Assembly: GCA_965263275.1 (NCBI GenBank) | Contig: OZ253668.1 | Span: 388,486 to 452,485 of the forward strand | Length of the DNA: 64,000 nt | Source of the DNA: Thermodesulfobacteriota bacterium | GTDB lineage: Bacteria; Desulfobacterota_D; UBA1144; Nemesobacterales; Nemesobacteraceae | Direction of reading: 5' to 3' | Shown here: in pieces, positions 1,187-27,460 of the stretch | Numbering within the stretch: the stretch's first letter is position 1 | Layout: each line of letters opens with the position of its first letter | Notes under the pieces: generated by a model | What the model saw: only the letters and a program-made list of their open reading frames with translations | What the model was told of the DNA's origin: nothing | Database searches by the model: none | Translations under genes and position numbers: made by a program

Positions 1187-1600
1187 TTAATCTGCTAATT
1201 CTTCTAGCAACTGTCTGAACTTCTTGTTGCTGATGCTGTTCTTCTCTCTGTTAAGTAACAATCTTCTACATTCAACGAAGTTTTCGTACGGCTTATCCCA
1301 CAAGTATTCCGCACATACGGCATAAGTAACAACGGTGGGATTCTTTTCATCATTGAGCATCTGTTCCAGTGCTTTCCCTTCAAATCCCCACTCACTCCAA
1401 ACCTTGTAAAAACACTGCCTTGTCAAGAGTTTTTCTTCTACACATTTCTTGTGGGTACCGGATATTTCACCCACCCATTCAAGTGTACCGTCTCCTTTTT
1501 TTACCCACTCTGCATTCGTTGATTCTGGAAAGACTACACTTGTAAAACAGAAAAAAAGTAGAAATGCAAAGACCACTTTGAAACCTATTCTCATGGGCAC
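1187..1600 (-). CDS. Hypothetical secreted protein (N-terminal signal peptide)
   Basis: 137-aa ORF with a hydrophobic N-terminal leader (FKVVFAFLLFFCFTSVVF) in a low-GC patch. No recognisable domain. Confidence 0.45.
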   Translation of the reverse strand: MPMRIGFKVVFAFLLFFCFTSVVFPESTNAEWVKKGDGTLEWVGEISGTHKKCVEEKLLTRQCFYKVWSEWGFEGKALEQMLNDEKNPTVVTYAVCAEYLWDKPYENFVECRRLLLNREKNSISNKKFRQLLEELAD

Positions 1601-2347: not shown

Positions 2348-2638
2348 GCAGGTTCTTTGAGATTTGGTGTTGCTTCCGGGGGTTTGGAGACTTTTAAAGG
2401 GTAGAAATTCAAGCTGGTTTGTGTTACACTGTTTACTAATAAGGTCGTTCTTCTCCTGTGTTGTAAAGTGTTGTAGTCGCTTATCTTATGACACAAACAG
2501 CGGCTTTTTCTATATCACTTTATGAGAAATTTCGGGCTAGGGATGATATTGACGCAATAGGTCCAAAGAGGAAAAAAGTAGGTATATTTACAACCATACT
2601 TTGGCACGGGCAAGGATCACTTAGCATAGGATTGTAAC

Positions 2639-3361
2639 ATGGCCGACAGATCTGGGATCGAATGGACTGACGCGACATGGAATCCGGTGACGGGTTGCAC
2701 CAAAATCACACGTGGTTGCGAGAACTGCTACGCGGCGCGCTTTGCCGAACGATGGCGTGGAGTCAAGGGCCATCCCTACGAACAAGGCTTCGACCTGCGT
2801 TTATGGCCATCGCGGCTTGATCAGCCATCACGATGGCGAAAATCTCGTATGATTTTTGTCAATTCGATGAGTGATTTGTTTCATAAACGCGTGCCGCGCC
2901 GGTTCATTGACGAAGTTTTCCAGCAGATGGAAAATGTGGATCACCACATCTATCAGATATTGACGAAGCGGAGTTCACTCATGCGGGATTATCTGAAGCG
3001 CAGGTACTCAGATGGTGCGGTTCCGGAGCATATCTGGTGCGGTGTTTCAGTGGAAGACCAAACGGCTACGGCCAGAATTCTGCATCTTCAAACTACACCG
3101 GCTACGGTTCGTTTTTTATCTGTTGAGCCGCTGTTAGGTCCACTAGGTGACATTGACTTGGAAGGGATTTCATGGGTTATTGTCGGCGGAGAAAGCGGTC
3201 CAAATGCTCGTTATTTGCATCTTGATTGGGTTTGCGACATCCGTGACCAATGTGCATCCACAGGCGTACCATTCTTCTTCAAGCAGTGGGGAGGGCGAAC
3301 GCCCAAGGCTGGTGGTCGCGAGCTTGAAGGGGTGGAACATAACGCTATGCCTAACTATTAA
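2639..3361 (+). CDS. DUF5131 / phage Gp37-Gp68 family protein (three-Cys motif)
   Basis: The N-terminus IEWTDATWNPVTGCTKITRGCENCYA is the family signature (WNPxxGC..GCxxCYA, Cx5CxxC). Length of 240 aa is typical. Confidence 0.8.
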   Translation: MADRSGIEWTDATWNPVTGCTKITRGCENCYAARFAERWRGVKGHPYEQGFDLRLWPSRLDQPSRWRKSRMIFVNSMSDLFHKRVPRRFIDEVFQQMENVDHHIYQILTKRSSLMRDYLKRRYSDGAVPEHIWCGVSVEDQTATARILHLQTTPATVRFLSVEPLLGPLGDIDLEGISWVIVGGESGPNARYLHLDWVCDIRDQCASTGVPFFFKQWGGRTPKAGGRELEGVEHNAMPNY

Positions 3362-3376
3362 ACGGAGGAATTATTC

Positions 3377-4630
3377 GTGTCTTCTTTCAAGTGGCATCCT
3401 AATGAGCCACCGCCTCAGATTGAAACACATAGCAAGGCGAAACTGGATGTGTTGCGCAGATACATTCAGGAGTATTTCGACAGGTTGAATGCCAAGCCAC
3501 AACGGGAGGAATTCAAGCTTGATCTAGTCGATGGTTTTGCCGGAGGCGGCACATTTCGTGATGGAAATACTGACCTCTCGGGTACGCCGTTGGTCATGTT
3601 AGAGGAAGCGGAAAAAGCGGAGAAGCGTTTAAACAAGAAGCGAAAAAAGCGACTACATATTAATTGTAAATTCTATTTCGTTGACAAGGAGAGAGCTCAC
3701 ACAGATCACCTTAAAAAAGTTCTCAAGGAACGCGAATATAGGGTTGATGAAGACAAAATTGTTGTCCGAAACGGTCTTTTCGAGAATGAAATCGAAGCTA
3801 TTCTTCGTTCAATTAAACAAAGACAGCCTCGTGCTGGACGTGCAATTTTTCTTCTCGACCAGACCGGTTTCTCTCAGGTGGAATTGTTGCTCGTCTCTAG
3901 GATTTTAAATGAGTTGCCAGCGGCAGAAGTTATACTTACATTTGCTGCGGAGACACTTGTCAATCATCTCGCAACAACACCTGAGATAGTCAAGGCGGTT
4001 TCACCGCTGCAACTGACTGAATCACAGATAGGCGACCTGATACAATATAAGGAAGGGGCTGGCGGAATGGCCTTAGTTCAGAGGACATTGCGCAATCATA
4101 TACGCTTAATGACCGGGGCGGAATATGACACTCCATTTTTCATTCGCCCTGCAATATCTCGCCGCGCATTGTGGTTTCTCCATCTGTCAAGACATCCTAC
4201 CGCGCGAGATGTCATGATTCGACTGCATTGGGATACTCAAAACAGGTTTGAGCATTATGGTCCCGGTGACTTCGGTATGTTGGGATGGGACGCATTAAGA
4301 GACTCCTCAAGTTTGCCTTTGTTTCAATTCGGTGATCTTGACCAGACACAGATGCGAAACCAGCTTCTGAACTCACTTCCAAGGAAGTTATTCAGCTTGG
4401 TATCTGAAGAGCCTGTTACCGTAGACGCGATGCGGCATATATTTGCAAATCAGACTGCCGCTCGATTTTCCGATCTTGATGAGATTATCCTTCAACTTGT
4501 TAGAGAAGAGGAGTTTCAAATTCTAGATCCAGAAGGCAAGGCGCGTTCGCGTTCACTAAAGCGTTTGAAGCCTACGGATCGAATCGGGCTGCCTCCAACC
4601 TTATTGTTTCCGGGGTTTTCCCGCAGGTGA
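3377..4630 (+). CDS. Three-Cys-motif partner protein TcmP-like (regular genomic partner of DUF5131)
   Basis: The 417-aa ORF starts 15 bp after DUF5131, so an operon is likely. Size and adjacency fit the TcmP family. An N-terminal LDLVDGFAGGGTF resembles a Rossmann/SAM motif I; this is inference. Confidence 0.55.
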   Translation: MSSFKWHPNEPPPQIETHSKAKLDVLRRYIQEYFDRLNAKPQREEFKLDLVDGFAGGGTFRDGNTDLSGTPLVMLEEAEKAEKRLNKKRKKRLHINCKFYFVDKERAHTDHLKKVLKEREYRVDEDKIVVRNGLFENEIEAILRSIKQRQPRAGRAIFLLDQTGFSQVELLLVSRILNELPAAEVILTFAAETLVNHLATTPEIVKAVSPLQLTESQIGDLIQYKEGAGGMALVQRTLRNHIRLMTGAEYDTPFFIRPAISRRALWFLHLSRHPTARDVMIRLHWDTQNRFEHYGPGDFGMLGWDALRDSSSLPLFQFGDLDQTQMRNQLLNSLPRKLFSLVSEEPVTVDAMRHIFANQTAARFSDLDEIILQLVREEEFQILDPEGKARSRSLKRLKPTDRIGLPPTLLFPGFSRR

Positions 4631-4752
4631 TGAATTTCCTTTTTGGTAACTGGCCCAGACCGAACTTCCAGACGGAAATCACTTCCTTGTCAGTGCCACG
4701 CTCTGCCCGCCATCTACTTGCTCTTCTCTCAAAAGTACGCTTCACTCTGGGG

Positions 4753-5649
4753 TCAGCTTCTCTTCACCCGTGCAAGCGACTCAATTAATTTACGCGAACG
4801 CCCAGCAATTAACGAACTCTGGTTATATATAATCTCATTAATTCTTCGAATTGTATGATCTCCTGTGATTTCAGCTAGACTCTCCTTTTCCCTAGGATGA
4901 GAGTCATGGTGTGTGACAGTTATATCGTGCGCGATTGGAAGATGCCATTCAGCTCCTGGATCAGAAAGTTTGTGATAGAGCCTTGCTGTGGGATTACTTC
5001 CGATAATAAAACTCTTGTTCGGTTTACGAATTATTCCGATAATGAGACCTCTGCTCTGAAGAATTTGAAATATCTTGCTTTCGGGAGTTAATCTGGCTAC
5101 CGCAGTTGCCCTAAGGTTGTGTTTTGTTCCGTCTATTTGTTTGGGATCATTCGCTTTCTTGATTTCTTCTTCCGTCGGTGGTCCATACTCTTTTTCATGC
5201 TCGGCTATAAGCTCGGGAATCCAATCAAGGTATTTATTCACAATTGGATCAAGGACATCCGGTGTACGAAAGGATTGAATCAGGAAAAATACATCCCATA
5301 TATTTTTTTCATCAGGAGTTAATTTAGGCAGTCTACCAGATCGGGCCGAGTTGATTATTTTTTTGGTTACGGGTGCAGCTTTTGACTCCAATTTAGACAG
5401 AGAGTCTTCAACTGAAACATTCTCCTCCTCGTGACCATCATATTGGGTGTAGAGTTCATCCTCTACGAAGAGTTTCTTTGGAGTTCTGCTTTTAACAACT
5501 CTCTCATGGGGCTTAATAACGGTTCCTTCAGAGGAACCTAAAATGCAGAAATGTAGTTTGTTGTCGTTATCTGTAAATTCTCGTAACAACAGTTGTGGCA
5601 CGTAATGGTGCCGTTTCGGTCGGTTCTCGGATTTGCTCATTAGATTCAC
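4753..5649 (-). CDS. DUF4238 domain protein (Rst_DUF4238-like defence candidate)
   Basis: N-terminal HHYVPQLLLREF matches the DUF4238 'HYVPQ' signature. Low-GC gene immediately downstream of the ATPase on the same strand. Confidence 0.65.
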   Translation of the reverse strand: MNLMSKSENRPKRHHYVPQLLLREFTDNDNKLHFCILGSSEGTVIKPHERVVKSRTPKKLFVEDELYTQYDGHEEENVSVEDSLSKLESKAAPVTKKIINSARSGRLPKLTPDEKNIWDVFFLIQSFRTPDVLDPIVNKYLDWIPELIAEHEKEYGPPTEEEIKKANDPKQIDGTKHNLRATAVARLTPESKIFQILQSRGLIIGIIRKPNKSFIIGSNPTARLYHKLSDPGAEWHLPIAHDITVTHHDSHPREKESLAEITGDHTIRRINEIIYNQSSLIAGRSRKLIESLARVKRS

Positions 5650-5763
5650 CTATTGGCAATGCTTCATGCCATTACAAAGGGATAATTCCCAAAATTTTAG
5701 TCGGCGACTTGCTGAGCACTATCGAGACCTCTTCACCATTAGTTAGTTATTTTCCCAGAAATA

Positions 5764-7929
5764 CTAAAGTTCCCGGACCTCTTCATAAACTTTCTTCAGA
5801 TGTTCATCAGATAAGTCCATAATAGGTTCATACATAAATGAATTGAGGTGAATATTCTCCGGCGTCATAAGAACAACCTTGTCTATAGATGAAATAGCAT
5901 CGCCGTCGTTCGGGTATTTCTCCTTAAACCTGCTCAAAAGCTTTGTTGTTTGAGATTCGTGAATTTCCGCCACGAAATTTGGTTCGTTGATTCGGGTAAT
6001 CATGTATTGTTCCGCCTTCAGTCTAGCCGCGATAGAGAGAACTATCTTGTTCTCCAAGTTTATACCCCCCTCGGCAACTAGACATGCATCGGCTTCTTGA
6101 AAAATGAGATCAAGAACTTTTCCAGTCCCGCCATTTGCGGGTTTGATTTTGGAACTGAACAGGTTTCGATAAATCTCAAAGAGATCGGCCTCTGTCAGAC
6201 TGTTCGTATCGGTTTTTATATGAAGCAGGGAAGTGAGTTTCTTGAAGTGTTCCGAATCTTCTCCAACGGTATACTCTACGAGGTTCCGCATGAATGGTAT
6301 TGACGCAATCCGCTTTCTTGGGTTGGAGGCAAAGTCCGGTTTCCAATCCTTCACGAAAACATTCTTTATCCCCGTCGCAGGTTCGATTTTAATCCCATCC
6401 TCGTTGCGTTTAGCCAAGAAGCAGGAACCGTAGTTAACAAAGCGGCTCTGGACTGTCCGGAAAAAATCAAAATTGTGCGTCAAAATCAATTGGCGGAAAT
6501 TCTTCTTTTCCGAAATATCCTTCAGGTACTGAATTATTGCGTACTTGTTTCTGTAATCAAACGAATCCGCAATATCATCAATAATCATTATAGTTTTCTG
6601 TCCAGAACTAATTCGTACTTGAATCTCGAATATGATGTTCAGGATATAGAAAGCTTTTTTTTCTCCAGTGCTAAGTACTTCAAGAAGGCTGTCTCTTTCT
6701 AAATCTTTACGCTCTTCACCATCTTTGAATGTAAAACCGAGCTTAAGAATCTTCTCCTCTCCGAGCGTGACGGGGATTTTGTTCTTCACGACCAATTCAA
6801 AAGGGACAAAAAAACGTGTGTTAAAAATCTCAATAACCTTCTCCCACTCAGTTCGTTCCCGTCCAGCCACTTCTTCTATTTCTTTTTTCTTTTTGGCTGC
6901 ACCCCGGATTTCCTCAACCAGTTTTTTGAATAGCTCCTTGTTTACACCCAAATAGCTCTTCCAGACATTGTCTTTGAACTCAGTTATATTGGCCAACGCT
7001 GGAAGAATTTCCTCATTTTCCGAAATATAGCTCTGAAATCCTCGCATACCCGCATTCTTTATTAGCAACTTTTCGAGCCCTTGGAATACTTTCCGCAATC
7101 CAGGGTCGGAGGATATCTCCTCCTTCTCTTTCTGAATCAGTTGCTCAAGCTGTTCGCTCGATTCTACTTCCATCGGATCTTGGGCATTGAGACTGACGGT
7201 ATGTTTAGCTTTGAAAAATCCGTTATCAGCAAGAGTTTTCGCAATGACTGAAGCATTGTAATAGGTGAAAACCCCTCTTTTGAAGTAAGTCGAACGATCG
7301 ATTAGTTCATTGTATCTCTTTATATAATCCTCAATGGTATCTTTAGCTCCTCCAGTGTTTAGAAACTCGAGAACTCTATTATCAAAGACCACATCATAGC
7401 GAATGTCTGCAAAAGGAAAGCTTGTTTCAGACATTACTTCCTCATATATACCAGAGATAGCACGCGTAAACTTGTCTTCTAAGGCAGTAAACGTTAAGGA
7501 GATCTCTTTTTCCAAGTTCTTCTTAGATCCAGATTGTTGCTTCATCGCATCCAGAAATTGCCTCTTCGCGTCTTCTACACTGGAGTTGAGTTCCTCATAT
7601 TTTTTGCGAAGCTGGGCATTGACTAAGAGTGTAGACGTCTTCTCGGTACTACCTAGGTCCTCATCATAAGGTCGAACGACCAAGATCGATGCGGGCTCCA
7701 AGGAAACGTCTTTCTCATCGGTTATAAGACATTTCGTATCTCTATCTGGAAATACCAGATCAGCAGATTCCTTACCTTCGCTTATATCCTGAAATGTCTT
7801 GGCGAGGGAGGATTTCATTGCTCCGTTTGGAGCGTATACAGCGACGGCCGGACAATGGTTAAAACTGAATTGCTTTTCCAGTCGACGGATACCGTAACAG
7901 TGTTCCAGATCCAACTTCAAAGTTCGCAT
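5764..7929 (-). CDS. ABC/SMC-fold ATPase (AAA_15/AAA_21-like) with a long helical insert and an extra C-terminal domain of ~230 aa
   Basis: Walker A (VAVYAPNGAMKSSLAKTF) is near the N-terminus. The ABC signature LSTGEKKAF, Walker B IMIIDDIADSFD and H-loop LILTHNFDF lie ~400 aa later. The spacer is charged and coil-like. Confidence 0.65.
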   Translation of the reverse strand: MRTLKLDLEHCYGIRRLEKQFSFNHCPAVAVYAPNGAMKSSLAKTFQDISEGKESADLVFPDRDTKCLITDEKDVSLEPASILVVRPYDEDLGSTEKTSTLLVNAQLRKKYEELNSSVEDAKRQFLDAMKQQSGSKKNLEKEISLTFTALEDKFTRAISGIYEEVMSETSFPFADIRYDVVFDNRVLEFLNTGGAKDTIEDYIKRYNELIDRSTYFKRGVFTYYNASVIAKTLADNGFFKAKHTVSLNAQDPMEVESSEQLEQLIQKEKEEISSDPGLRKVFQGLEKLLIKNAGMRGFQSYISENEEILPALANITEFKDNVWKSYLGVNKELFKKLVEEIRGAAKKKKEIEEVAGRERTEWEKVIEIFNTRFFVPFELVVKNKIPVTLGEEKILKLGFTFKDGEERKDLERDSLLEVLSTGEKKAFYILNIIFEIQVRISSGQKTIMIIDDIADSFDYRNKYAIIQYLKDISEKKNFRQLILTHNFDFFRTVQSRFVNYGSCFLAKRNEDGIKIEPATGIKNVFVKDWKPDFASNPRKRIASIPFMRNLVEYTVGEDSEHFKKLTSLLHIKTDTNSLTEADLFEIYRNLFSSKIKPANGGTGKVLDLIFQEADACLVAEGGINLENKIVLSIAARLKAEQYMITRINEPNFVAEIHESQTTKLLSRFKEKYPNDGDAISSIDKVVLMTPENIHLNSFMYEPIMDLSDEHLKKVYEEVREL

Positions 7930-8145
7930 TAATCTCCTCCCTACCTATAGACTGAGCTATCATAAGATATCCGATCACTCCGACTGTGTAGCCATTTTCC
8001 ACTTGTTTCTGACCTTATATTAAGATTTGACAGATAGTGCTCGGAATCTTTCGCAAATTAAGAAATGAAGAAGGCGGCATTTCTTTATACATCCGGTTAA
8101 ATAAAACGTGGATTTACAAACTATTTAACAGGAGGAAACACCGCC

Positions 8146-8938
8146 ATGAGAGATTATACAGCGAAGGGCCCTAAAAAAAAGGTAATTCAGATAAACGAGA
8201 AGGAACTGCAGCAACACCTCAGCCCCCTTGTCACGGATACAGTACAGGAAGTTCTGAATCAGGTTCTCGACGCGGAAGCGGACGAGATGGTCGGGGCGGC
8301 TCGATACGAACGAAGCGCCGATCGCCAGGATTATCGTTACGGGAGCTACACAAGGAAGCTCCAAACCAAGGCAGGAGAAGTTGAGCTGAATATACCCAAG
8401 CTTCGGGAGCAGACGTTTCAGATGGCCATAATAGAGCGTTACAGGCGACGGGAGTCATCGATAAAAGAAGTTTTGGTGGAGATGTATCTTGCGGGAGTGT
8501 CGACGCGTCGGGTGGCGGATATCACCGAGGCGCTGTGGGACACGCGGGTGAGTTCGGCTACCGTATCGAAGCTTAACCAAAGCGTGTACGAGCACATAGA
8601 GAAGTGGAGAAACAGGTCGATAGAAGGAGAGTTTCCGTATGTATATCTTGACGGGGTGAGTCTCAAGGCAGGGGTGTGTAGATGAGACGCTCACGTACTA
8701 CGGGTTTCCGTCGTCGCACTGGCGGAGGATCCGGACGAACAATTCTATGGAGAGGATAATCAGGGAGATCAGGCGAAGATCCAGGGTGGTGGGAGCTTTC
8801 CCTGACGGGCAAAGCGCGTTGATGTTGTGTGCGGCGAGGTTAAGGCATGTATCGGGGACGAAGTGGGGGAGCAGGAGATATCTGGATATGGAGTTGTTAA
8901 GGGAAATGGACAGAAAGGAGGGAGTTAAGGTAGGGTGA
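8146..8938 (+). pseudogene. IS256-family (mutator) transposase remnant with an internal deletion
   Basis: 8146-8685 encodes the N-terminal ~179 aa of an IS256-type transposase (YERSADRQDYRYGSYTRKLQTKAGEVELNIPKLRE...). 8747-8938 encodes only the C-terminal tail (ERIIREIRRRSRVVGAFPDGQSALML). The DDE core is missing. Confidence 0.75.
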
Positions 8939-8985
8939 TTGACAAAGCAGTATCTGGAATTTCTCAAGATCTGAGATCTCAGATA

Positions 8986-11900
8986 CTACTTGTTGGTAAC
9001 CCTGAATTGATCCAGTTTCGGTAGTGATTTCACTATTTTCATGGTTTCGAGACTCACCGTGATTATACGTCGAAACAGATCCAGAGGATAAGCTGCTGAG
9101 TTTACTGTTTCTTTTGCGTATAGGTTTGCGTTGTTTACAATACCGCTGTCTTTGTCAGTTCTCACACCTTGTCTTTCCATCACCCACTCAAGCGCCGGTT
9201 TTCCGTTGACCATATACTCGTAGGTTTCCAGCGGAATACCCGTCATGGTGATTTTATGATTGTAGGCCACGGTAGTTCGATCCTTATTTTTGCCGCTGCC
9301 GCCAAATTTCATTTTTTCTACCCTGAAGTTTTCGGGGTTAGGTTGCATAGAGTATGGATCACCTTCTTTGAAGTTAACGGGGTAGGGTTCTATTCTTTCG
9401 TAATCTACGTGTATATCCGCTAGTTCACGACCTGCATTGGAAAATGCCCAGAAATCCTTGGATTTTTTCACGCAAGGGATTCGCGGCAGTTGCTTGCTTA
9501 GATTATTGGCGTAACTCTTGCGGTAATCTTCTGAGTGAAACAGGCCATAGATGTAATAAAACACGTCTTCTTTGGAGATTCTTTCTTCTGGATAAGCTTT
9601 TTGAAAGTGCTCTAGACCTGTGTCACTTATCCCGTCTTTTTCAACATAATCATCTTCGGTGCGCTGGGTTTTATATAGTTCTCCATTAAGGTTTTCGGTT
9701 TTTTCATAAAGCTTGAGAGGAAAGCATTGACTGTCTCCTACCATATGTAAGTCGGGCAAATGATCTGTCATCAAAACGGAGAAACCACTTTTTTGACCGA
9801 CACTTGTCATTACAATCACTCGGTTTCTCACTTCAGGCTTCGGAAAAATACTGGGCATTTGAAAAACCCTTTTATTCATATCTCGGCTGAAGTAGGTCCA
9901 TTGCTTGAAAAACGGACGGTACATAGATGGATAAACACACTCAGCAAAATAGCAATGTTTTTTCCTTTTGATTAGATTCCATTTAAGTCCGTCTGTCCAA
10001 CTAATCTGACTTTTGTCAGTATCGATAAGATCATCAATGTTAGTTCTTGTTAGTTCTGAGGAAAATAAACGGTCAATTTCACTATTGTAAAACGAGATCA
10101 TGGATTCCATATTCCTCGTCAAAGTTTCCTTAGAACTGTTGTAACACCATGCGTCACGACTTGTTCCCAACCCAGCTGAATAATTTTCAAAAATCGTTGC
10201 TGAAGATTTGTCTTTCTTGTTTCCAATAGCAATGAATTCACCAAAACTCTTATCCCTCTGTTCAATCCAGTCGTTATGTTCGTCGGGTGTAATCGCTTTC
10301 CAGTTATTTGCTTTCTTGATACCTGAAATACTTTTGAATTCTTTTATATGTGCGAGTTTTTCTTCTCTTGAGAGGTAATTGCCAATATCGTGGTAATAGA
10401 TTCTTCCGAGTTTCTTTTTTGCGGGATTTTTAACTGCAATTGTGATCGCTATAGCTTCCCTGCTACCTTCTCCAAACACATTTCCACTTTCCTTTCGTCT
10501 CTGTTCACCCGAAGTTCTAGCATCTCCCCTCAAATTAAAAACATGGACACTACTAAATTCATCTGCAAGACATTTACGAAGACCATCCATAGACCTAGCT
10601 GTGATAAAGGTTGAGCTGCTCACATAAGCCAGAACCCCACAACTACCTAAACGATCTGATCCCCATCGAAAAGCTCTGACGAAAGAATTATAAAGTGAGT
10701 TTTTTGCTGTAGCGTCCGTATTTGCTACGTAGGTTGATCTAATACTTTTATCAAGACTTTTATACGAGACTTTTTTAAGATTGTCCCCCTCATCTCTTTG
10801 AGATCCTCTGTATGGTGGGTTTGCCATTATGACACGTATATCTTCAAGCTTTTTCTGTTTAATTCGACGATCACTGTTATTGACCAGTATTTCGCTGATC
10901 ATATCATCTTTTTCGTAAAGCTGGAACGTATCTGTAAGGCATATTCCTTCAAACGGTTCATATTTTCCCCCAGCAAGAGCATGATAAGCGGCTTCGATGT
11001 TGATTGCGGCTATATAATAGGCAAGAAGCACTATCTCGTTCGCATGGAGTTCGTTTTTGTATTTGTGCTCAAGTTCTTGCGGCTTTATTAGTCCGCTTTG
11101 CAGAAGACGAGTTATAAATGTCCCAGTACCGACAAAAGGGTCCAGTATATGAACTCCTTTACTGCCAAGGGTCTGTCCAAACTCTGATTGGAGTACATCG
11201 TTAACGGAATTAACAATGAAATCGACAATTTCAACCGGCGTGTAGACGATACCGAGTTTCTGCGTCATACCCGGAAACGCGTTTTTGAAAAACTTCTCGT
11301 AAAGCTGAATTATGATCTGTTGCTTTGCCCCATCGTTGTCAATGCCGGAAGCTCTCATTCTGACGCTCGCGTAAAATTTGTCGAGGCTCTCAGTTTCGTT
11401 ATCAAGGTTGTGCGCTTGAAGAGCATCCAAAACCCCTTGCATTGCTATTGAGACCGGGTTCTGTTGAGAAAAACTGTAACCTTCAAACAGCGCGTCGAAC
11501 ACGGGTTTTGTGATCAGATGCTGAGACAGCATCTCAATCGCGTCTGATTCGCTGATGCTTTCATTCAGGTCATCACGAACTTCTTCAAGAAATTTATCAA
11601 AGGTTTTCCTTTCTTCCGTATCCGGTTTTTTCAGAATAGCCCCAATCCGCGTAATATGGGTTTGAGCGATCTTTGCTACATCGCCCGCCCAGTCTTCCCA
11701 GTATTCCCGGGTTCCGCATTTCTGAACGATCTTTGCCAGTACGGCCTTGTTGAAATCGTCAAGCTCAAAAGACAGTTGTTCGGGTGGTGTAACAGGGACA
11801 GCGTGATTTTCCCGCTGCTCATCCCCGGATACACTGCCTGAACCGATATCGTTTCTCTTGGGGGTTTGTATGGATCTTTGCGGGAGATTTCCTACGACGG

Positions 11901-12282
11901 CGATTATTTCCATACGGTCGCTTACGTCAACTCCCAGATCAATCTTGTTGATCATTGAGTCAAACCGGTCGTCATGGGCTCGAAGAGCGTTAAGTATCTG
12001 CCAGACCGTTTTGTATTTCTCGTTGTTGTTAAGGGCTTGTGATGGAGGTATACCCGCAGGTATGCCGATAGGGAGTATGACGTACCCCATATTCTTGCCG
12101 GGAGCCCGGCGCATTACTCGGCCCACGGACTGGACTACGTCGATTTGAGATTTGCGTGGATGCATGAAAAGGATAGCGTCCAAAGCGGGCACATCCACGC
12201 CTTCGGAAAGACATCTGGCATTGCTCAGAATACGGCATGTATTTTGGTCCACCCCCCCCCCGATTTTTCGGCGCTCAGCCAA
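8986..12282 (-). CDS. Type ISP restriction-modification enzyme, C-terminal fragment (helicase C-lobe, gamma-class N6-adenine methyltransferase, target recognition domain)
   Basis: Helicase motif VI (QSVGRVMRR), methyltransferase motif I (DPFVGTGTF) followed by motif IV (IMANPPYRG), and a long C-terminal TRD-like region. Contiguous with the upstream fragment after a +1/-2 shift at 12252-12261. Confidence 0.75.
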   Translation of the reverse strand: MAERRKIGGGVDQNTCRILSNARCLSEGVDVPALDAILFMHPRKSQIDVVQSVGRVMRRAPGKNMGYVILPIGIPAGIPPSQALNNNEKYKTVWQILNALRAHDDRFDSMINKIDLGVDVSDRMEIIAVVGNLPQRSIQTPKRNDIGSGSVSGDEQRENHAVPVTPPEQLSFELDDFNKAVLAKIVQKCGTREYWEDWAGDVAKIAQTHITRIGAILKKPDTEERKTFDKFLEEVRDDLNESISESDAIEMLSQHLITKPVFDALFEGYSFSQQNPVSIAMQGVLDALQAHNLDNETESLDKFYASVRMRASGIDNDGAKQQIIIQLYEKFFKNAFPGMTQKLGIVYTPVEIVDFIVNSVNDVLQSEFGQTLGSKGVHILDPFVGTGTFITRLLQSGLIKPQELEHKYKNELHANEIVLLAYYIAAINIEAAYHALAGGKYEPFEGICLTDTFQLYEKDDMISEILVNNSDRRIKQKKLEDIRVIMANPPYRGSQRDEGDNLKKVSYKSLDKSIRSTYVANTDATAKNSLYNSFVRAFRWGSDRLGSCGVLAYVSSSTFITARSMDGLRKCLADEFSSVHVFNLRGDARTSGEQRRKESGNVFGEGSREAIAITIAVKNPAKKKLGRIYYHDIGNYLSREEKLAHIKEFKSISGIKKANNWKAITPDEHNDWIEQRDKSFGEFIAIGNKKDKSSATIFENYSAGLGTSRDAWCYNSSKETLTRNMESMISFYNSEIDRLFSSELTRTNIDDLIDTDKSQISWTDGLKWNLIKRKKHCYFAECVYPSMYRPFFKQWTYFSRDMNKRVFQMPSIFPKPEVRNRVIVMTSVGQKSGFSVLMTDHLPDLHMVGDSQCFPLKLYEKTENLNGELYKTQRTEDDYVEKDGISDTGLEHFQKAYPEERISKEDVFYYIYGLFHSEDYRKSYANNLSKQLPRIPCVKKSKDFWAFSNAGRELADIHVDYERIEPYPVNFKEGDPYSMQPNPENFRVEKMKFGGSGKNKDRTTVAYNHKITMTGIPLETYEYMVNGKPALEWVMERQGVRTDKDSGIVNNANLYAKETVNSAAYPLDLFRRIITVSLETMKIVKSLPKLDQFRVTNK

Positions 12283-13874
12283 TCAAGAAGCCTTCCGCGC
12301 TCCTTCGCGTTAAAGGTTCCGTCCACGTGCTCTACCTCGCATCTGAGCGTCGCGCCATTTCCCTGTTTCTGTTCTTCCAGATATTCTGAAACCACCTCGG
12401 CAAATTCTTTTTTGATTAGTTCTGAGCTTTTTATGCTTTTACAGAACGCAACGGCTTGGCTCATAGGTTCTGTGTCGGCGAGCAGATCTTCTTTGAGGTC
12501 GAGCTTGGCCAGAGCCCGATAGCACCCGATGATTTTCGTTACGTCATCCAGAACGAGCTGGGAATCGGTGTCGGTCAGGCGTTTCTGTACGCTTTCGCTT
12601 ACCACCCCTTCGTCCATGGCCAGCACGATAACCTTATAATCGGTGAGGAGGTTATTCTCCACCGCGTATGAAAAGCTGACTTCGTGGAACGTTTCTCCGT
12701 AGAGTTCGGGGTCGTCCATGGAGCATAGGACCGCATCCGCTTCTTTGGCCTTTGTTTTTACCGAGTCGTGGAAAATACGGGGCGTAGCGGTCATGTAGAG
12801 GCGCTTTTTTCCTTTTATGAAATCCTGATAGTGAACCTTGACGAAATTGGATTCATCTTTATTGGCCAAAGTAGCACCGGTGGTGCGATGCGCTTCGTCA
12901 CAGACAATCAGATCAAACTCGGGGAGTCCGTAGTCCGCCTGCGCTTTGAAAATAACCTGTATTGAATGATAGGTAGAGAAAACAACGTTCATCCTGTCCT
13001 CGCTGCAAGCACGGGAAAATTCCTCTCCAAGTTTTTCTGCGTTGGTTGTGGCAGGATACGCAAGATCGTGAATGTTTATATCCGACAGGTCGTCTCTGGC
13101 TTTGCGTTTTCCGACATGAACATCGGAGCAGACGGCAAAAGACCTCAACTCCAGTTCCGCGTCATGGGTCCACTTGCGGATTGTCTGGGACATGAGGGAA
13201 AGCGAGGGGACAAGATATAAAACGCACCCGCCTTTTCCGACTATCTGCTCGGCAATCCTGAGGCTTGTCAGGGTTTTCCCCGTGCCGCACGCCATAAGCA
13301 GCTTGCCGCGGTCAGTTTCCCCGAATTTTTTTTCCACGGCCTTCAAGGCTTCCCGCTGATGCTTGTAAAGATGCTTTCCCTCCAGCAGCTTAATCTTGTT
13401 GTCTCTCGCGTATGTTTCCCAGTCTAACGGACTCAGCTCAAGGTCTCTCAGAGACAAACGTGTAACAGGAACAGTCTGGCCTTTGAGTGCATCCTCTGCA
13501 TGGTTGCTCCACTCAACTGCGGTCGAGTCGACAATAAGACGCATCTTAAAAGACTTCTTCCCCGAAGCAGTAAAAAAAGAGTCAATATCTTTTTTCTGTA
13601 TCTTGTAATTCTCTTGGTAGAACTTGCACTGAATGGCGCAGTGGCCTTCCTCACGGGCAAGCTTCGCGACAAGATCAATCCCAGTGTCGGTTTCATTCAG
13701 ATCTTGTGATCGTGCCCATCCTGCGTATGTCCATACCTGACTGAACAGGTCTGTGTACAAGGGATCGTTCTCAAGAAAATTCTTTACCAGGAGTTCAAAA
13801 TATTCTCCCTTCTCACGCTCTGTTCTGGAGTTTTTGCGATATCTGTCAAGAAGTTTCTGCAGTGCAGAGATCAT
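12225..13874 (-). CDS. Type ISP restriction-modification enzyme, N-terminal fragment (Mrr-like nuclease plus SF2 helicase N-lobe)
   Basis: The Mrr catalytic-like N-terminus (GEYFELLVKNFLEN, GIDLVA, CKFY) is followed by a helicase Walker A (CGTGKT) and DEAH box (VCDEAH). The frame terminates just after the G10 tract. Confidence 0.75.
   Translation of the reverse strand: MISALQKLLDRYRKNSRTEREKGEYFELLVKNFLENDPLYTDLFSQVWTYAGWARSQDLNETDTGIDLVAKLAREEGHCAIQCKFYQENYKIQKKDIDSFFTASGKKSFKMRLIVDSTAVEWSNHAEDALKGQTVPVTRLSLRDLELSPLDWETYARDNKIKLLEGKHLYKHQREALKAVEKKFGETDRGKLLMACGTGKTLTSLRIAEQIVGKGGCVLYLVPSLSLMSQTIRKWTHDAELELRSFAVCSDVHVGKRKARDDLSDINIHDLAYPATTNAEKLGEEFSRACSEDRMNVVFSTYHSIQVIFKAQADYGLPEFDLIVCDEAHRTTGATLANKDESNFVKVHYQDFIKGKKRLYMTATPRIFHDSVKTKAKEADAVLCSMDDPELYGETFHEVSFSYAVENNLLTDYKVIVLAMDEGVVSESVQKRLTDTDSQLVLDDVTKIIGCYRALAKLDLKEDLLADTEPMSQAVAFCKSIKSSELIKKEFAEVVSEYLEEQKQGNGATLRCEVEHVDGTFNAKERGRLLDWLSAEKSGGGWTKIHAVF
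12252..12261. repeat. C10 (coding strand G10) homopolymer tract at the frameshift point of the Type ISP RM gene; candidate phase-variation switch
   Basis: Ten consecutive C on the plus strand. The two RM ORFs overlap exactly here (12225-12282). A tract of 8 or 11 would fuse the frames. Confidence 0.8.
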
Positions 13875-15144: not shown

Positions 15145-16338
15145 GTGTTTTTGCGGTTGCTTTATCATACCGATTTAGTATCTTATTGTCTCATGATAGA
15201 CCATAACCATTTCGCAAATGAGCTTCTTCGTATCATTCAGGGGGCTTTACGTCTCGATATTGATAAAGTTAGGAATTATACTGATTTCTTGGCCGACAAT
15301 CTTGAGAAGGAGGGGGAAGAAACCTTGGCCAAGCGTTTGCGAAAACTGCTTGAGGAATCTGACCGCCAAATTCGTCCAACCGATGCTGAATTTGCAAATT
15401 TTCCTCCGGTAGACGGCGAAAGCCGATTTCACTTGGTTGAACTTGTTGATTGCCCAAAAGAACCTCCGCTTATACTGGCAGATGAACAGTGGGAAATTGT
15501 GCATGAATTTGCCAGCGTAGCCAAGAGCTATGCGCAAATTGACAATCGGGGTTACGATGCTTCTCTCAGCCTTGTTGTGCATGGGTCTCCCGGAACGGGT
15601 AAAAACCGACTTGTCCGATACTTGGCGCGAGAACTCGGCCTCGATCTGTACATCGCGCGCCTTGACGGTTTGATTTCTTCTTACCTTGGGAGCACAGCGA
15701 AGAATATCCGCGCTATTTTTGAATTCGCAGCTAAGCGTCCATGTGTGCTTTTTCTGGATGAGTTTGATGCAATCGCGAAGTTGAGAGGGGACTCTCAGGA
15801 ACTTGGTGAGTTGAAGCGAGTCGTAAACAGCTTTATCCAGAACCTCGATACTATCGGACGACAATCAATTGTTGTGGCAGCTACCAATCACGAGGAACTT
15901 CTGGATGCGGCAATCTGGAGGCGTTTTAGCTACAGGATTGAACTAACTCTTCCAGACGAGCAGATGCGCCACCGTATGTGGGTAAATTTCAGCCGACCTA
16001 TTGAATTCACGAAACGTGAACTGGAACTGCTTGTTGATTTGTCAGATGGATTCTCCGGTTCTGACATCCACGATGTGTGTGTTCGGTTAAACAGGTACGG
16101 GTTAAGTTCCAATAAACCTCCAAGCTTCAATAGAGCCTTTTTAACTATACAGAACATGTCAATAGGGGAAGTGACGAAGAACCGGATCGCGTCGCAGACA
16201 CGTGGAGTCAAGCCCGAAGAAGCGGCGTATATACTGAGAACCAGAAATCCACGATTGTACACCCTCTCGGCATTAGCGCATATCCTGGGTGTTTCAAAGG
16301 CAAAAGTGCATCGCTGGACATTAAAAAGGAGAAGTTAG
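15145..16338 (+). CDS. Classical-clade AAA+ ATPase (IetA-like); GTG start at 15145, or ATG at 15193
   Basis: Walker A GSPGTGKNRL, Walker B VLFLDEFD, and SRH/arginine finger ATNHEELLDAAIWRRF. The stop lies 2 nt before the S8 gene start. Confidence 0.75.
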   Translation: MFLRLLYHTDLVSYCLMIDHNHFANELLRIIQGALRLDIDKVRNYTDFLADNLEKEGEETLAKRLRKLLEESDRQIRPTDAEFANFPPVDGESRFHLVELVDCPKEPPLILADEQWEIVHEFASVAKSYAQIDNRGYDASLSLVVHGSPGTGKNRLVRYLARELGLDLYIARLDGLISSYLGSTAKNIRAIFEFAAKRPCVLFLDEFDAIAKLRGDSQELGELKRVVNSFIQNLDTIGRQSIVVAATNHEELLDAAIWRRFSYRIELTLPDEQMRHRMWVNFSRPIEFTKRELELLVDLSDGFSGSDIHDVCVRLNRYGLSSNKPPSFNRAFLTIQNMSIGEVTKNRIASQTRGVKPEEAAYILRTRNPRLYTLSALAHILGVSKAKVHRWTLKRRS

Positions 16339-16340
16339 AC

Positions 16341-18656
16341 ATGAATGAGAAACTGCTGCCTATAAAACTCATTATGCCCAAGCAGGGAAGTGAACGACGC
16401 ATACCGGGTGGTCGCGGCCCTAAAAAGCCATTTCGTCCGATTGATTCCACCTACAGGAACCGATTGTCCAATCAGATTAGGGCAATCCGTAAAAGTTTGC
16501 CAAAACAAATTAAAAATGTCGGTGCTGCTCCTGTCCGGGTTTCTCTGATTCCCCAAGCTATAGCTAAGACACACCGTCCCGAAAAACTGTTTTCAGAGAG
16601 CACCTGTCCGATCATTGGCGCGGGTGGTCTTGGAGAATTGTTTATTAAGGCAACGCCTGCCGGACTTGATGAGTTGGACAACATTGTAGAGGAAGGCGAT
16701 TCTGATCAACTTGTTAAGGAGCTATCTTCTGTGCAGAGCATTGAACCCGTTACTCCGAATTCTCGTCTTGGAAACACATCCACGAGGGAGTTGCTACAAA
16801 ACAGTCCACGCGGAGAAAACGGGTTTATAGTGCGAGTTCGTCTGTTTGATTTTGGCCGAGATGGGGACCAGGAAAAGTTAATGGCTGATTTTAAGCAGAC
16901 ATGTAGAAAACGCCGTATTGCAATTACCCAAGACGGTTATTCTTTAAATAGCTTCATCTACGCGGCTGAATGCAGAAATACAAACGATGTTAAGAGTATT
17001 GCTGATGTAGTGGGAGTTCGTTCAATTCACTATATGCCGTTGATTCAAACCGTACGTCCTAATATCTCCAATACTGAGAAGTTACCTCTTCTAATCGACC
17101 GTACCGAATACTCTGAAGATGTCCCGGTGGTAGTGGTAGTTGACAGTGGGATTTCAGATGAATTGCCTGTATTGGAAAGCTGGGTGCTTGGTCGCGAATC
17201 ATCTGTAGCGCCACCGTATCAAAATACTGACCACGGAACATTTGTTGCCAGTTTGATTTGTTGGGGTCATATACTGAATCCGACTTTAAAGGGACTAAAT
17301 TCTGACCCATGTGGGGTTTTTGACCTGCAAATCATTCCGAACAGCGACCCTGAAAAAGGAGACGTGGAGTCTTTACTCGAATCTGAGTTTTTATGGTCTC
17401 TGGAGAAATCGCTCAAACAGTGGGCGAACAAATACAAAGTATGGAATTTGTCACTTAACACGGATGCAGTTTGTTTGATTGACGAATTCTCGCCACTTGC
17501 GGAAGAACTTGATAATCTGCAGGAAAAGTATCAGGTATCGTTCGTTATCAGCGCGGGAAACTATATATCTCGACCACTTCTGGATTACCCTAGAACTCAG
17601 GAACAGGAAGAAAAGGGCCGTATAACTTCGCCAGCTGATAGCGTGCTTGGCATAACTGTTGGTGCCATCTCCCATGTTGATCACAAGAAATCGGGGGTGA
17701 TTAAAAACCATCCCTCTGCGTTTTCCCGTAACGGTAGTGGGCCAAACTATGTGATTAAACCCGATCTTGTTCATTACGGAGGGGCGTGTTCCACTGACCT
17801 GTCGCACATAGCCGGGATTCATTCAATTAATGGCAGGAAATCTGTCGAAGTTTTCGGAACCAGTTTTTCGGCTCCGCTCGTATCGCGAACATTGGCACAG
17901 ATATATCATTATGTAACTCCTTCTCCTTCTCCGGTGTTGGCAAGAGCTCTGCTTACACATCACTCGCGCGATCCGCGAACGGATGACCGAGTTCCTGACG
18001 GGGAGGAAAAATGCTTCGGATTCGGCCGGCCCGCGCCGGTTCCGTACTGTCTAGAGTGCATGCCATATTCGTCAACGCTTGTATTTGAAGATGTGCTCCG
18101 CCCAGGCTACTTTCTTGAATGGAACAATTTTCCCTATCCGCCATCTCTGAAGCGCGACGGTCGTTATTATGGCGAAATATGGATGACTGTAGCTTTTGTG
18201 CCAGCGAGAGGGGCCCGCTGGGGGACCGAATATTGCGAAACTCATATTGATGCAAGTCTTGGAGTTTATTACGAACAAGTTTCACGCGAAACTGGAGAAG
18301 TCAAAACAAAATTCCGTGGACTGGTACCACCTGAGCACAAAAACCCAGGCCTTCTTTATGAGTCGTCTCAAGTTGCTCAGTTACGCAAGTGGGCGCCTGT
18401 TCGAACCTACCATGGCAAAATGGGTGATAAAGGCGAAAGAGGGTTGCAATGGAGACTAAAGCTAAGGTTGTTGACGCGTCACGGTATAGATAACGAGGAA
18501 ACTTTCAAACCCCAGCCGTTTTCTTTGATCATAACTGTTGCGGACCCACAGAAAAAGGCCCCTGTCTATGATGAAATGTCTCGAATGGTACGGAATCGTT
18601 TTCAATCTGAGAATCTTACAATCAGAGTTCCTGCGCGTATTAGAGCGCGAGGGTAA
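16341..18656 (+). CDS. Subtilisin-like S8 serine peptidase with long N- and C-terminal extensions (IetS-like)
   Basis: Catalytic triad motifs VVVVDSGI (Asp), DHGTFVASLI (His), oxyanion ISAGN and GTSFSAPLVS (Ser). AGGAG RBS 8 nt upstream; tightly coupled to the AAA gene. Confidence 0.8.
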   Translation: MNEKLLPIKLIMPKQGSERRIPGGRGPKKPFRPIDSTYRNRLSNQIRAIRKSLPKQIKNVGAAPVRVSLIPQAIAKTHRPEKLFSESTCPIIGAGGLGELFIKATPAGLDELDNIVEEGDSDQLVKELSSVQSIEPVTPNSRLGNTSTRELLQNSPRGENGFIVRVRLFDFGRDGDQEKLMADFKQTCRKRRIAITQDGYSLNSFIYAAECRNTNDVKSIADVVGVRSIHYMPLIQTVRPNISNTEKLPLLIDRTEYSEDVPVVVVVDSGISDELPVLESWVLGRESSVAPPYQNTDHGTFVASLICWGHILNPTLKGLNSDPCGVFDLQIIPNSDPEKGDVESLLESEFLWSLEKSLKQWANKYKVWNLSLNTDAVCLIDEFSPLAEELDNLQEKYQVSFVISAGNYISRPLLDYPRTQEQEEKGRITSPADSVLGITVGAISHVDHKKSGVIKNHPSAFSRNGSGPNYVIKPDLVHYGGACSTDLSHIAGIHSINGRKSVEVFGTSFSAPLVSRTLAQIYHYVTPSPSPVLARALLTHHSRDPRTDDRVPDGEEKCFGFGRPAPVPYCLECMPYSSTLVFEDVLRPGYFLEWNNFPYPPSLKRDGRYYGEIWMTVAFVPARGARWGTEYCETHIDASLGVYYEQVSRETGEVKTKFRGLVPPEHKNPGLLYESSQVAQLRKWAPVRTYHGKMGDKGERGLQWRLKLRLLTRHGIDNEETFKPQPFSLIITVADPQKKAPVYDEMSRMVRNRFQSENLTIRVPARIRARG

Positions 18657-18888: not shown

Positions 18889-19500
18889 ATGGAAATCAGC
18901 CTTAATTTTACTAACTATAAACCAGGATTTTTAATTTGTACGATTGGAATACTCTGGCTTCTTTGTTATTGGGCATTGTCCTTTCTTTGGCAGCATGGGG
19001 TTTTTCAAGGAATTGCTCCAACTCTGCTTGTCGCATCTTTCTTGGGATTTTATGACAAGCTGTTATGGAAATTCCCTGTGTTTAGTCTTCTTGTAAAAGT
19101 CCCTGATTTAAACGGAGAGTATGAAGGTACAGTTGAATATCACTGGGACGATAAAAACCAAAACAAAACCTGTAATCTCCAAATTCGACAGACGGCTTCT
19201 TTCATTAAAGTAAAGTGTTCTTTTCAAAAAGAAGGGGAGAACGAGACTTCATCTGAAAGCAAGAAAGCTTTTTTTGATACTGATGAGGTAGGCGGCTGCT
19301 CCCTCTATTTTTACTATCAGAATAGAGGTTCTTGCAAGGATGGCGATACGTTGGACCAGCATGATGGAATGACAATTCTTCAGGTGATCGAGGAGGGTAA
19401 AGATATAAAACTAGAAGGTTCTTATTTTACGAATCGCAACCCACAGACAAAGGGGCGAATTAAAGTTTCAAAAATCATTTTACCGGAGGTAAACAAATGA
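18889..19500 (+). CDS. CBASS effector candidate: two N-terminal TM helices plus a ~110-aa C-terminal domain (Cap15-like)
   Basis: Two hydrophobic helices (LICTIGILWLLCYWALSFLW; IAPTLLVASFLGFYDKLLW) followed by a soluble domain. The stop overlaps the cyclase start (ATGA). Confidence 0.5.
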   Translation: MEISLNFTNYKPGFLICTIGILWLLCYWALSFLWQHGVFQGIAPTLLVASFLGFYDKLLWKFPVFSLLVKVPDLNGEYEGTVEYHWDDKNQNKTCNLQIRQTASFIKVKCSFQKEGENETSSESKKAFFDTDEVGGCSLYFYYQNRGSCKDGDTLDQHDGMTILQVIEEGKDIKLEGSYFTNRNPQTKGRIKVSKIILPEVNK

Positions 19501-27284: not shown

Positions 27285-27420
27285 TTTTACGGATCTCCCC
27301 GCTACCATTGAGCAATCCGTGGATTTGTATAGCGCGACAAACAAGATTGAACGGTTGCGACAAACAAGATTGAACTTTCATGTCGCAGCGAAAGAGACAA
27401 TACCGGGATAATTCAGGGGA

Positions 27421-27445: not shown

Positions 27446-27460
27446 CGGGTGGGGTGGGGG

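Follow-up and report, generated by a model that had tools for sequence, protein, structure and literature searches.

Two genes adjoin on the minus strand of the window (the whole 64,000-nt stretch of DNA that was analysed), in a variable defence island located between dnaK and pyruvate dehydrogenase genes. The features of the locus, given in window coordinates, are as follows.

5764 to 7929, minus strand: gene for an ABC/Rad50-fold ATPase of the PDC-S46 family with a fused C-terminal domain, 721 aa
7930 to 8059, minus strand: upstream region with a GGAGGAG ribosome-binding site and a presumed promoter, which moves along with the ATPase gene
5641 to 5763, minus strand: gap between the two genes, 123 nt, carrying homology break points of both cassettes
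4753 to 5640, minus strand: DUF4238 gene, 295 aa from the ATG at 5640, read here as a stand-alone single-gene module
2639 to 4630, plus strand: DUF5131 and TcmP pair (PADLOC candidates PDC-M30/M41), convergent with the DUF4238 gene

Type ISP R-M, CBASS, SIR2 and PLD genes were observed around the ATPase gene in the window, and no RNA genes were returned when the window was scanned with Rfam and for tRNAs.

Both open reading frames named in a preliminary description of this DNA were found on the minus strand. Given that the ATPase had more than 4,900 homologues, at 55–99% identity across its full length, and the DUF4238 protein 27 homologues in 5.8 billion proteins searched, both were considered real genes, chance open reading frames being excluded on this comparative evidence. 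For the DUF4238 protein, these homologues form a small, divergent sub-family. The start of its gene was listed as the GTG at 5649, which lies inside a Shine-Dalgarno-like AGGTGA; for this reason, and because close homologues are also 295 aa long, the ATG at 5640 was preferred. The spacing of 114 bp originally reported between the two genes holds if the GTG is used, but becomes 123 nt from the preferred ATG. The protein matched Pfam family PF14022 at 100.5 bits, above the gathering cut-off of 27 (E = 1.5e-28), with residues 13–279 aligned to model positions 1–272 of 281, and an RHHYVPQ motif was seen in its translation, which confirmed its initial assignment as an HHYVPQ-type DUF4238 protein.

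The ATPase matched the PADLOC family PDC-S46 (model PDLC05023) along its full length (E = 6.5e-272, 902 bits, residues 1–721 on positions 1–718 of 719), as well as PHROG 38705 (E = 4e-178). It is thus a member of an already catalogued single-gene candidate family, from which it differs in nothing; like the family, it behaves as a single gene across genomes. PDC-S46 is one of 145 phage defence candidates, and was selected in PADLOC because it is embedded within known defence systems (Payne et al. 2024, bioRxiv 10.1101/2024.01.29.577857). The family was found in many phyla, on plasmids (27) and in prophages. In the literature, we found nothing under the PDC-S46 name, nor for AAA_13 in an anti-phage context. 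Its C-terminal domain, initially described as novel, is indeed unassigned, but the protein taken as a whole is no new one. The following features, all on the minus strand, were located in its sequence, the four short motifs by translation.

7810 to 7833, minus strand: Walker A-like motif APNGAMKS, residues 33–40
6805 to 7632, minus strand: helical insert of about 275 aa, residues ~100–375, which splits the ATPase head
6655 to 6675, minus strand: signature motif LSTGEKK, residues 419–425
6574 to 6594, minus strand: Walker B motif TIMIIDD, residues 446–452
6472 to 6480, minus strand: H-loop THN, residues 484–486
5767 to 6441, minus strand: all-alpha C-terminal domain, residues 497–721, as modelled

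According to the structural model, the head adopts an ABC/SMC-Rad50 fold with a signature, a Walker B motif and an H-loop; the best Foldseek matches of the model in the PDB were Rad50, SMC and retron PtuA heads (E from 7e-7 to 1e-3). Pfam support for the window protein itself was limited to SMC_N, at 24 bits and below the cut-off of 40, and no match to AAA_13 (PF13166, cut-off 36 bits) was reported. This latter profile was passed by four homologues (P0009, P0012, P0023 and P0048) with 40–51 bits, over residues ~200–560 and profile positions 282–606 of 713. A canonical Walker A motif, GxxxxGK[ST], was absent. In APNGAMKS, the usual Gly of GK[ST] is replaced by Met, whereas the Lys and the Ser/Thr are retained, so that normal ATP hydrolysis is not assured. 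This form is a property of the family: A33, N35, G36, M38 and K39 were invariant in a 65-sequence alignment and, among 85 representatives picked via the C-terminus alone, all 14 of the commonest forms listed corresponded to [AS][PS]NGxMK[ST]; the search pattern gave no match in 11 of the 85. DDIADSFD was present in 64 and THN in 79 of these representatives. The Walker A-like motif and the signature are separated by about 380 aa, mostly helical in the model, compared with the ~390 aa given for the helical insert at the outset. The apical sub-domain of the insert (residues ~200–250) was highly conserved, with invariant columns from Y202 to N248, and no CxxC zinc hook was observed in residues 100–380 of any of the 85 full-length representatives.

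The region past the H-loop comprises about 235 aa, and the model of the C-terminal domain had a pLDDT of 86.9 and a pTM of 0.83. This domain was observed only within proteins of ~720 aa or fragments of them (best 150 of 1,092 representatives). It contains nine invariant polar residues (R548, H570, K628, R636, T689, H694, N696, E701 and D705) and three nearly invariant ones (N549, E552 and E691). One motif reads LMTPENIHLNSFMYEP; the best conserved, PENIHLNSFMYEP, was modelled with low confidence (pLDDT below 50 at residues 695–699). No Pfam family was found for the region past the H-loop, even at E ≤ 5–10, and 26 diverse C-terminal fragments searched against Pfam at E ≤ 10 gave nothing consistent. 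In the PDB, a sequence profile search returned nothing under E = 0.1 and Foldseek nothing under E = 1. Against PADLOC, the C-terminus alone matched PDC-S46 (E = 5e-82) and no other family. The description of this region as a domain of ~230 aa without assignment was thus upheld, and the suggestion that it might be a Toprim or another nuclease received no support from Pfam, PADLOC or Foldseek. Weak, non-significant Foldseek hints (E from 1 to 3) pointed to 2q00 (probability 0.54) and Las1 7y16, both of which are classed as HEPN proteins (PMC3710099).

Two readings of the gene pair had been proposed, a two-component system and two stacked systems. In the former, the ATPase would sense infection and activate the DUF4238 effector, as a lineage-specific variant of the combination of an ABC ATPase and a separate effector that is common among defence systems (Payne et al. 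2024, bioRxiv 10.1101/2024.01.29.577857). The arrangement in the window is in line with such a system, as the two genes lie on the same strand, 123 nt apart, with no predicted terminator between them. The co-occurrence of the two families, which had been suggested as a check, was examined in 80 loci of different species spread over many phyla, with ATPases at 46–61% identity. DUF4238 was directly downstream of the ATPase in none of 78 diverse loci (Pfam scan), the commonest family at this position being DUF2130 (6 of the 78), and a DUF4238-like open reading frame was found within 6 kb of the ATPase in 1 locus out of 80 (one each by phmmer and by motif search). The sole such frame, in locus L012, was 2.8 kb away and convergent. 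No neighbour family was common to more than 7 of the 80 loci, which means that the ATPase has no obligatory partner.

The linkage was already lost among close relatives. ATPases 87% identical to that of the window adjoined SIR2_2 or PDH genes and one 77% identical adjoined DUF6864; conversely, DUF4238 homologues at 79%, 75%, 72%, 44% and 39% identity occurred without the ATPase. The ATPase gene also stood alone on a 39-kb Sphingomonas plasmid, where it was flanked by a PIN/HTH pair on one side and an ars operon on the other. A hidden, distant ATPase partner beside other DUF4238 genes was also considered and rejected, since no similarity to the ATPase was seen either in L090, for a 796-aa gene that overlaps DUF4238, or in L089, for a 1,236-aa gene.

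The edges of the homologous segments likewise separated the two genes. Loci with the ATPase only were homologous to the window from 5708/5716 to 7998/8059: on the downstream side, homology ended at 5708 (L084/85), 5716 (L091) or 5766 (L086), and on the upstream side it extended to 7998 (L084) or 8059–8062 (L091, and likewise L081-83, where both genes are present). Loci with DUF4238 only (L087–L089) were homologous from 4740/4750 to 5646/5677. The gap therefore carries break points of both cassettes. Within one lineage, the pair was kept, together with the DUF5131 and TcmP genes, in a four-gene block (window 2391–8059) shared by at least five contigs (the window, L081-83 and L095), with 93–95% nucleotide identity in L081-83 and L095. 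This conservation is a further point for a two-component system. In L095, however, the ATPase gene was 99.1% identical at the nucleotide level (dS 0.027) and the DUF4238 gene 90.2% (dS 0.167), a six-fold difference in synonymous divergence that indicates a mosaic history of the block. No terminator- or promoter-like site was found on the minus strand of the gap and, since the block was kept, the pair may be co-transcribed, with some local interplay. The DUF5131 and TcmP pair belongs to the lineage-specific block and to neither module; a tie between this pair and DUF4238 was rejected, as the pair was absent beside the DUF4238 homologues in L087–L090 and L093.

The window ATPase resembles Gabija, PARIS, Septu/retron PtuAB and HEC-01 to HEC-03 in being an ABC ATPase with remodelled inserts, and the fold of its head is similar to that of retron PtuA chains 9e8z, 9kjz and 9n69 (Foldseek). 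These two-gene systems, however, depend on an effector gene that is conserved next to the ATPase gene; no such gene was found beside the window ATPase family, which bears a conserved C-terminal domain of its own. Co-occurrence confined to one narrow lineage, the cassette edges and the mosaic divergence thus led us to reject the two-component reading, which we consider very improbable. The lack of co-occurrence outside this lineage also answers to the refuting criterion named in the preliminary description itself. By contrast, absent linkage, break points in the gap and differing divergence all argue for two stacked systems, and it is highly probable that the locus as a whole consists of independent stacked modules, namely an ATPase with a fused C-terminal domain and a DUF4238 protein acting alone. 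The pair as proposed would have meant a new two-gene ABC-ATPase architecture; on this evidence it does not qualify as such, but provides a clean example of defence-island neighbours that look like an operon and yet have separate histories.

For the DUF4238 protein, a model of independent action is available. As correctly stated in the preliminary description, DUF4238 has been reported as a single-gene anti-phage system: a lone DUF4238 protein, Rst_DUF4238, from a P2 hotspot of E. coli, defends this bacterium against T7 (Rousset et al. 2022, PMC9122126). The window protein shares Pfam family PF14022 with Rst_DUF4238 and its family also consists of a single gene that moves alone among defence-island contexts, as homologues with 72–79% identity stood alone elsewhere, with DNA homology confined to the gene. 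The two proteins differ in that they are related at the Pfam level only and that the window protein had no defence-database or phage-borne match: no PADLOC model matched it, even at E ≤ 10, and no tblastn match was found in 50,697 phage records (E ≤ 0.01). The window DUF4238 protein would thus act alone, like its validated E. coli relative.

The ATPase, for its part, probably works like RloC and PrrC, by analogy with which an ABC sensor would be combined with a fused C-terminal effector. Some sign of infection, for example DNA ends, a phage protein or nucleotides, would be perceived by the head together with the insert; once NTP has been bound or hydrolysed, the C-terminal domain would be released as the effector, most likely a metal-independent nuclease, which would halt the growth of the infected cell. 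Whereas the gene identities, the fold, the conservation, the missing linkage and the separate mobility were observed, a defence role for either gene, the sensing step and the chemistry of the effector are inferred. Joining an ABC ATPase to a C-terminal RNase is a solution that recurs among defence systems (PMC3710099, PMC3458546). As in RloC and PrrC, a single polypeptide carries an N-terminal Walker A motif, a long helical insert, a signature and Walker B of the DD-x-x-x-S-x-D type, a THN H-loop and an all-alpha C-terminal domain; homologues pass Pfam AAA_13, and the non-significant fold hints are HEPN-like. The ATPase also stands alone, as RloC does (PMC3710099). On the other hand, the window family lacks the CxxC zinc hook of RloC (0 of 85), Rx4-6H is not among its invariant residues, its P-loop has Met for Gly, no PADLOC PrrC or RloC model matched it, and the gene is not inside a type I R-M operon here. 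Membership of PrrC/RloC was rejected on the lack of a model match, of a zinc hook and of Rx4-6H. The R548-x3-E552...H570 pattern of the C-terminus may recall the PrrC triad. We tentatively suggest that PDC-S46 might be a lone RloC-like ABC sensor with an NGxMK[ST] P-loop, whose all-alpha C-terminus would be a novel type of effector, either a new nuclease fold or a very divergent HEPN domain with R-x3-E...H as its active site.

The C-terminal domain could also be a sensor or oligomerisation module, with protection exerted by the ATPase head, for example by trapping phage DNA or protein, or via a host factor. We regard this as possible, if somewhat doubtful: no catalytic motif of a known nuclease family was recognised in the C-terminus, and the low pLDDT (below 50) at residues 695–699 of PENIHLNSFMYEP is as expected for an interface or a lid, but the dense invariant Arg, His, Lys, Glu, Asn and Asp residues are more typical of an active site, and those ABC defence proteins known to date that consist of one chain (RloC, PrrC, OLD and HEC-04) bear a fused effector. 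It is unlikely that the ATPase is no immune gene at all but a Rad50/SMC-like protein serving DNA handling or maintenance in mobile elements (plasmids, prophages and islands), whose presence in defence islands would reflect mobility only. Its fold is nearest to Rad50/SMC heads, 27 plasmids carry the family and a PHROG includes it, PDC-S46 is a candidate family only, and the deviant P-loop could mean a non-enzymatic function. Such a role is, however, at odds with two observations: no partner of the Mre11/SbcD or kleisin kind is conserved beside the gene, and defence genes are very frequent in its neighbourhood (methylases, Mrr, Fic, nSTAND), with 190 PADLOC families among 78 neighbours. The embedding within known defence systems for which PADLOC chose PDC-S46, as well as the Type ISP R-M, CBASS, SIR2 and PLD genes around the window ATPase, also argues against it. 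For PDC-S46, the comparison provides sharper targets, namely the deviant but conserved P-loop, the conserved apical sub-domain and a short list of invariant C-terminal polar residues.

Two ORFs were present on the minus strand, at 4753–5649 and 5764–7929. The first matched Pfam DUF4238 (PF14022; 100.5 bits versus a cut-off of 27) and contained an RHHYVPQ motif, confirming the preliminary description of a DUF4238 protein with an HHYVPQ motif encoded beside a large ATPase on the same strand. The GTG start listed for DUF4238 falls within the ribosome-binding sequence AGGTGA; the ATG at 5640 gives a 295-aa protein, the same length as in all close homologues. With this start, the gap to the ATPase gene is 123 nt rather than the 114 nt initially reported; the adjacency itself is retained.

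Both genes lie in a long variable island, which begins right after dnaK (3–881) and also contains an IS256 fragment and the following genes:

2639–4630, plus strand: DUF5131 (240 aa) and three-Cys-motif partner protein TcmP (417 aa), matching the PADLOC candidate two-gene systems PDC-M30/M41
8986–12282, minus strand: Type ISP ORF with coupler, methylase and specificity domains (1,098 aa)
12225–13874, minus strand: Type ISP ORF with Mrr_cat_2 and ResIII (549 aa)
15145–18656: AAA ATPase and subtilase S8 pair
18889–19500: CBASS Cap15 receptor
19497–20450: CBASS CD-NTase
20435–21097: SEC-C-motif protein, with CBASS
21552–22619: SIR2_2, weak match
23767–24924: PLD-like gene
25509–31568: three transposase genes after the defence genes (DDE_Tnp_1, Mu-like, DDE_Tnp_1/DUF772)

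Related contigs carried differing selections and orders of these genes. Between them, amino-acid identity was 96–100% for DUF5131 and 87–89% for TcmP. The two overlapping Type ISP ORFs jointly cover PADLOC model PDLC03597 (1,646 positions) and are two pieces of one restriction-modification enzyme, which is either a pseudogene broken by a frameshift or an enzyme naturally made in two parts; part of it recurred in contig L090 at 87% identity. To the right of the transposases, the 32–64 kb stretch contained a phage-type integrase, a GmrSD-like enzyme and AAA_14/DUF4143, as well as, from about 37 kb on, housekeeping genes for pyruvate dehydrogenase E1/E2/E3 (beginning at ~37.4 kb), SAM synthetase, AdoHcyase, ScpA/B and YbeY.

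The ATPase and DUF4238 had been proposed to form either a two-component system or two stacked systems. Four lines of evidence argue against the former, the first being the suggested co-occurrence check. Among 80 ATPase loci from different species of many phyla, no neighbour family was shared by more than 7. In a Pfam scan of the gene immediately downstream of the ATPase, DUF4238 was found in 0 of 78 cases, the commonest family being DUF2130 (6 out of 78). Across the 80 loci, phmmer and the motif HH[YFW][VILT][PS] each picked out one DUF4238-like ORF within 6 kb (L012), located 2.8 kb from the ATPase and convergent with it.

Second, the genes part company in close relatives. The four-gene block, including the convergent TcmP and DUF5131, was kept in L081–L083 (ATPase 91% identical) and L095 (99%). 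Elsewhere, the homologues were found in separate contexts:

L084 and L085: ATPase (87%), neighbouring a SIR2_2 gene
L091: ATPase (87%), adjoining pyruvate dehydrogenase genes
L086: ATPase (77%), neighbouring DUF6864 and others
L087–L090 and L093: DUF4238 (79%, 75%, 72%, 44% and 39%) in other defence or prophage contexts, the ATPase never being present

Third, DNA homology to the window in these separate contexts was limited to the gene concerned, spanning 5708–7998, 5716–8059 and 5766–7933 for the ATPase alone and 4740/4750–5646/5677 for DUF4238 alone. All break points on the side shared by the two cassettes were in the 123-nt gap. The ATPase cassette includes 70–130 nt of its own upstream sequence; that of DUF4238 extends scarcely beyond its ribosome-binding site. 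Fourth, compared with L095, the ATPase gene exhibited 99.1% DNA identity (dS 0.027, dN/dS 0.18), versus 90.2% (dS 0.167, dN/dS 0.53) for the adjoining DUF4238 gene. No terminator-like site was found in the gap, so the two genes may be co-transcribed in the window; this is the only point favouring their coupling. On the four lines of evidence, DUF4238 is not the partner of the ATPase and the pairing is not real, which supports the stacked reading. Both genes belong to catalogued families, to each of which the window supplies a new member; the locus is a clear case of stacked defence genes, and the question worth pursuing is the ATPase family, PDC-S46, rather than the locus itself.

DUF2130 lay directly downstream of the ATPase homologue in L001, L005, L020, L021, L040 and L078, in some cases overlapping or nearly abutting its stop codon on the same strand (−37 to +36 nt), and may be a sub-family-specific partner or one more stacked gene. 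An ORF of 137–140 aa, which matched no family and whose N-terminus resembles a signal peptide, occurs in the window (1187–1600, minus strand) some 3 kb past DUF4238. In L084/L085 it is directly upstream of the ATPase (L084 940–1362; 90% nucleotide identity), and the junction there corresponds to window positions 1140 and 7998. This placement shows that the ATPase cassette was inserted at differing points of the same hotspot. Just upstream of the cassette, a truncated IS256/Mutator-family transposase (8146–8685, plus strand; 179 aa, matching only positions 8–171 of 379) separates it from a 70–120-nt sequence (8817–8939) that is directly upstream of the ATPase in L081–L083 and L091.

The ATPase matched PADLOC model PDC-S46 end to end (E = 6.5e-272), as well as PHROG 38705 (E = 4e-178); by these matches, it is not an orphan but a member of an already catalogued family. 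PDC systems are 145 "phage defence candidates", selected as embedded in known defence systems (bioRxiv 10.1101/2024.01.29.577857). The family is large and remarkably well conserved: the homologues number more than 4,900, and the best 120 share 55–99% identity along their entire length. At least 571 of the 599 pattern matches in a species-representative genome set encode a relative, and 27 plasmids carried a member, their taxa ranging from Proteobacteria to Paenibacillus, Pedobacter, Leptospira and Kocuria; some members are named "phage infection protein" or "AAA family ATPase" by NCBI. The following motifs were read from the translation:

Residues 33–40 (nt 7810–7833, minus strand): Walker A-like APNGAMKS
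Residues 419–425: signature LSTGEKK
Residues 446–452: Walker B TIMIIDD
Residues 484–486: H-loop THN

The spacing of ~390 aa first noted between Walker A and signature holds, at about 380 aa, as does the C-terminal region of ~230 aa with no assigned family (225–235 aa). Pfam SMC_N reached only 24 bits (cut-off 40). Several homologues exceeded the AAA_13 cut-off of 36 (40–51 bits, residues ~200–560), which puts the family close to ABC ATPases of the PrrC/RloC type. The best PDB matches of the AlphaFold model (65-sequence alignment, mean pLDDT 80) were Rad50, SMC/condensin/cohesin and retron PtuA heads (E 7e-7 to 1e-3). The family P-loop is [AS][PS]NGxMK[ST], with Met replacing the usual, near-universal Gly of GK[ST], a substitution for which we know of no precedent. 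This Met was invariant in the 65-sequence alignment and present in all 14 commonest forms listed for 85 full-length representatives, chosen through their C-termini only (the pattern drew a blank in 11). A CxxC zinc hook was found in the insert of 0 of these 85 proteins; the apical stretch from Y202 to N248 was highly conserved.

Modelled alone, residues 497–721 formed a confident all-alpha domain (pLDDT 86.9, pTM 0.83). Searched exhaustively with phmmer, 1.84 billion representatives yielded 1,092 relatives. Each of the best 150 was either a protein of ~720 aa carrying the domain in an equivalent position or a fragment of such a protein; by this distribution, the domain appears to be specific to the ATPase family. 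It matched no Pfam family, even at E ≤ 10 across 26 diverse fragments, no PADLOC model besides PDC-S46, no PDB sequence and, by Foldseek, no PDB structure below E = 1. The only Foldseek matches with any probability were 2q00 (probability 0.54, target TM-score 0.51, 119 columns) and Las1 7y16, both HEPN proteins (PMC3710099), giving a hint, rather than a result, of a HEPN-like fold. Across sequences whose column identity averaged about 38%, R548, H570, K628, R636, T689, H694, N696, E701 and D705 were invariant, and N549, E552 and E691 nearly so; this set looks like an active site, but the canonical HEPN Rx4-6H was not among the invariant residues. The motif LMTPENIHLNSFMYEP was the best conserved yet worst modelled, with pLDDT below 50 at 695–699.

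Encoded by a stand-alone gene and combining an ABC head with a long insert and a C-terminal domain in one chain, the ATPase is built like RloC, in which a DNA-dependent ATPase switches on a C-terminal anticodon nuclease (PMC3458546). Since ABC-plus-HEPN fusions are also recurrent in defence (PMC3710099), we propose that the head would act as a sensor, freeing the C-terminal domain as effector. Membership of PrrC/RloC was rejected, as no PrrC or RloC model matched, the insert has no zinc hook and Rx4-6H is not among the invariant residues; the protein might therefore work like PrrC/RloC rather than be one. The gene is probably defensive; that its effector is a nuclease is a tentative proposal, drawn from this analogy.

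As initially stated, DUF4238 is a reported single-gene anti-phage system: on its own, a DUF4238 protein from the P2 hotspot gives E. coli protection from T7 (PMC9122126). The window protein shares its Pfam family and solitary habit, and by analogy we infer that it would act as a single-protein defence. No closer tie was found by PADLOC or by tblastn in phages, nor any PDB relative. In L090 (3614–6867), a 796-aa gene with hydrophobic stretches and no Pfam family lies upstream of the 44% homologue, which overlaps its stop by 4 nt, so some DUF4238 sub-families may have a partner; no such gene was called beside the 39% homologue in L093. Compared with L081, L095 and L088, the window DUF4238 (4753–5640) exhibited a dN/dS of 0.40–0.54, versus 0.15–0.28 for the ATPase and DUF5131, and a protein identity (83–84%) below its DNA identity (90–91%); such rapid protein evolution fits relaxed or diversifying selection.
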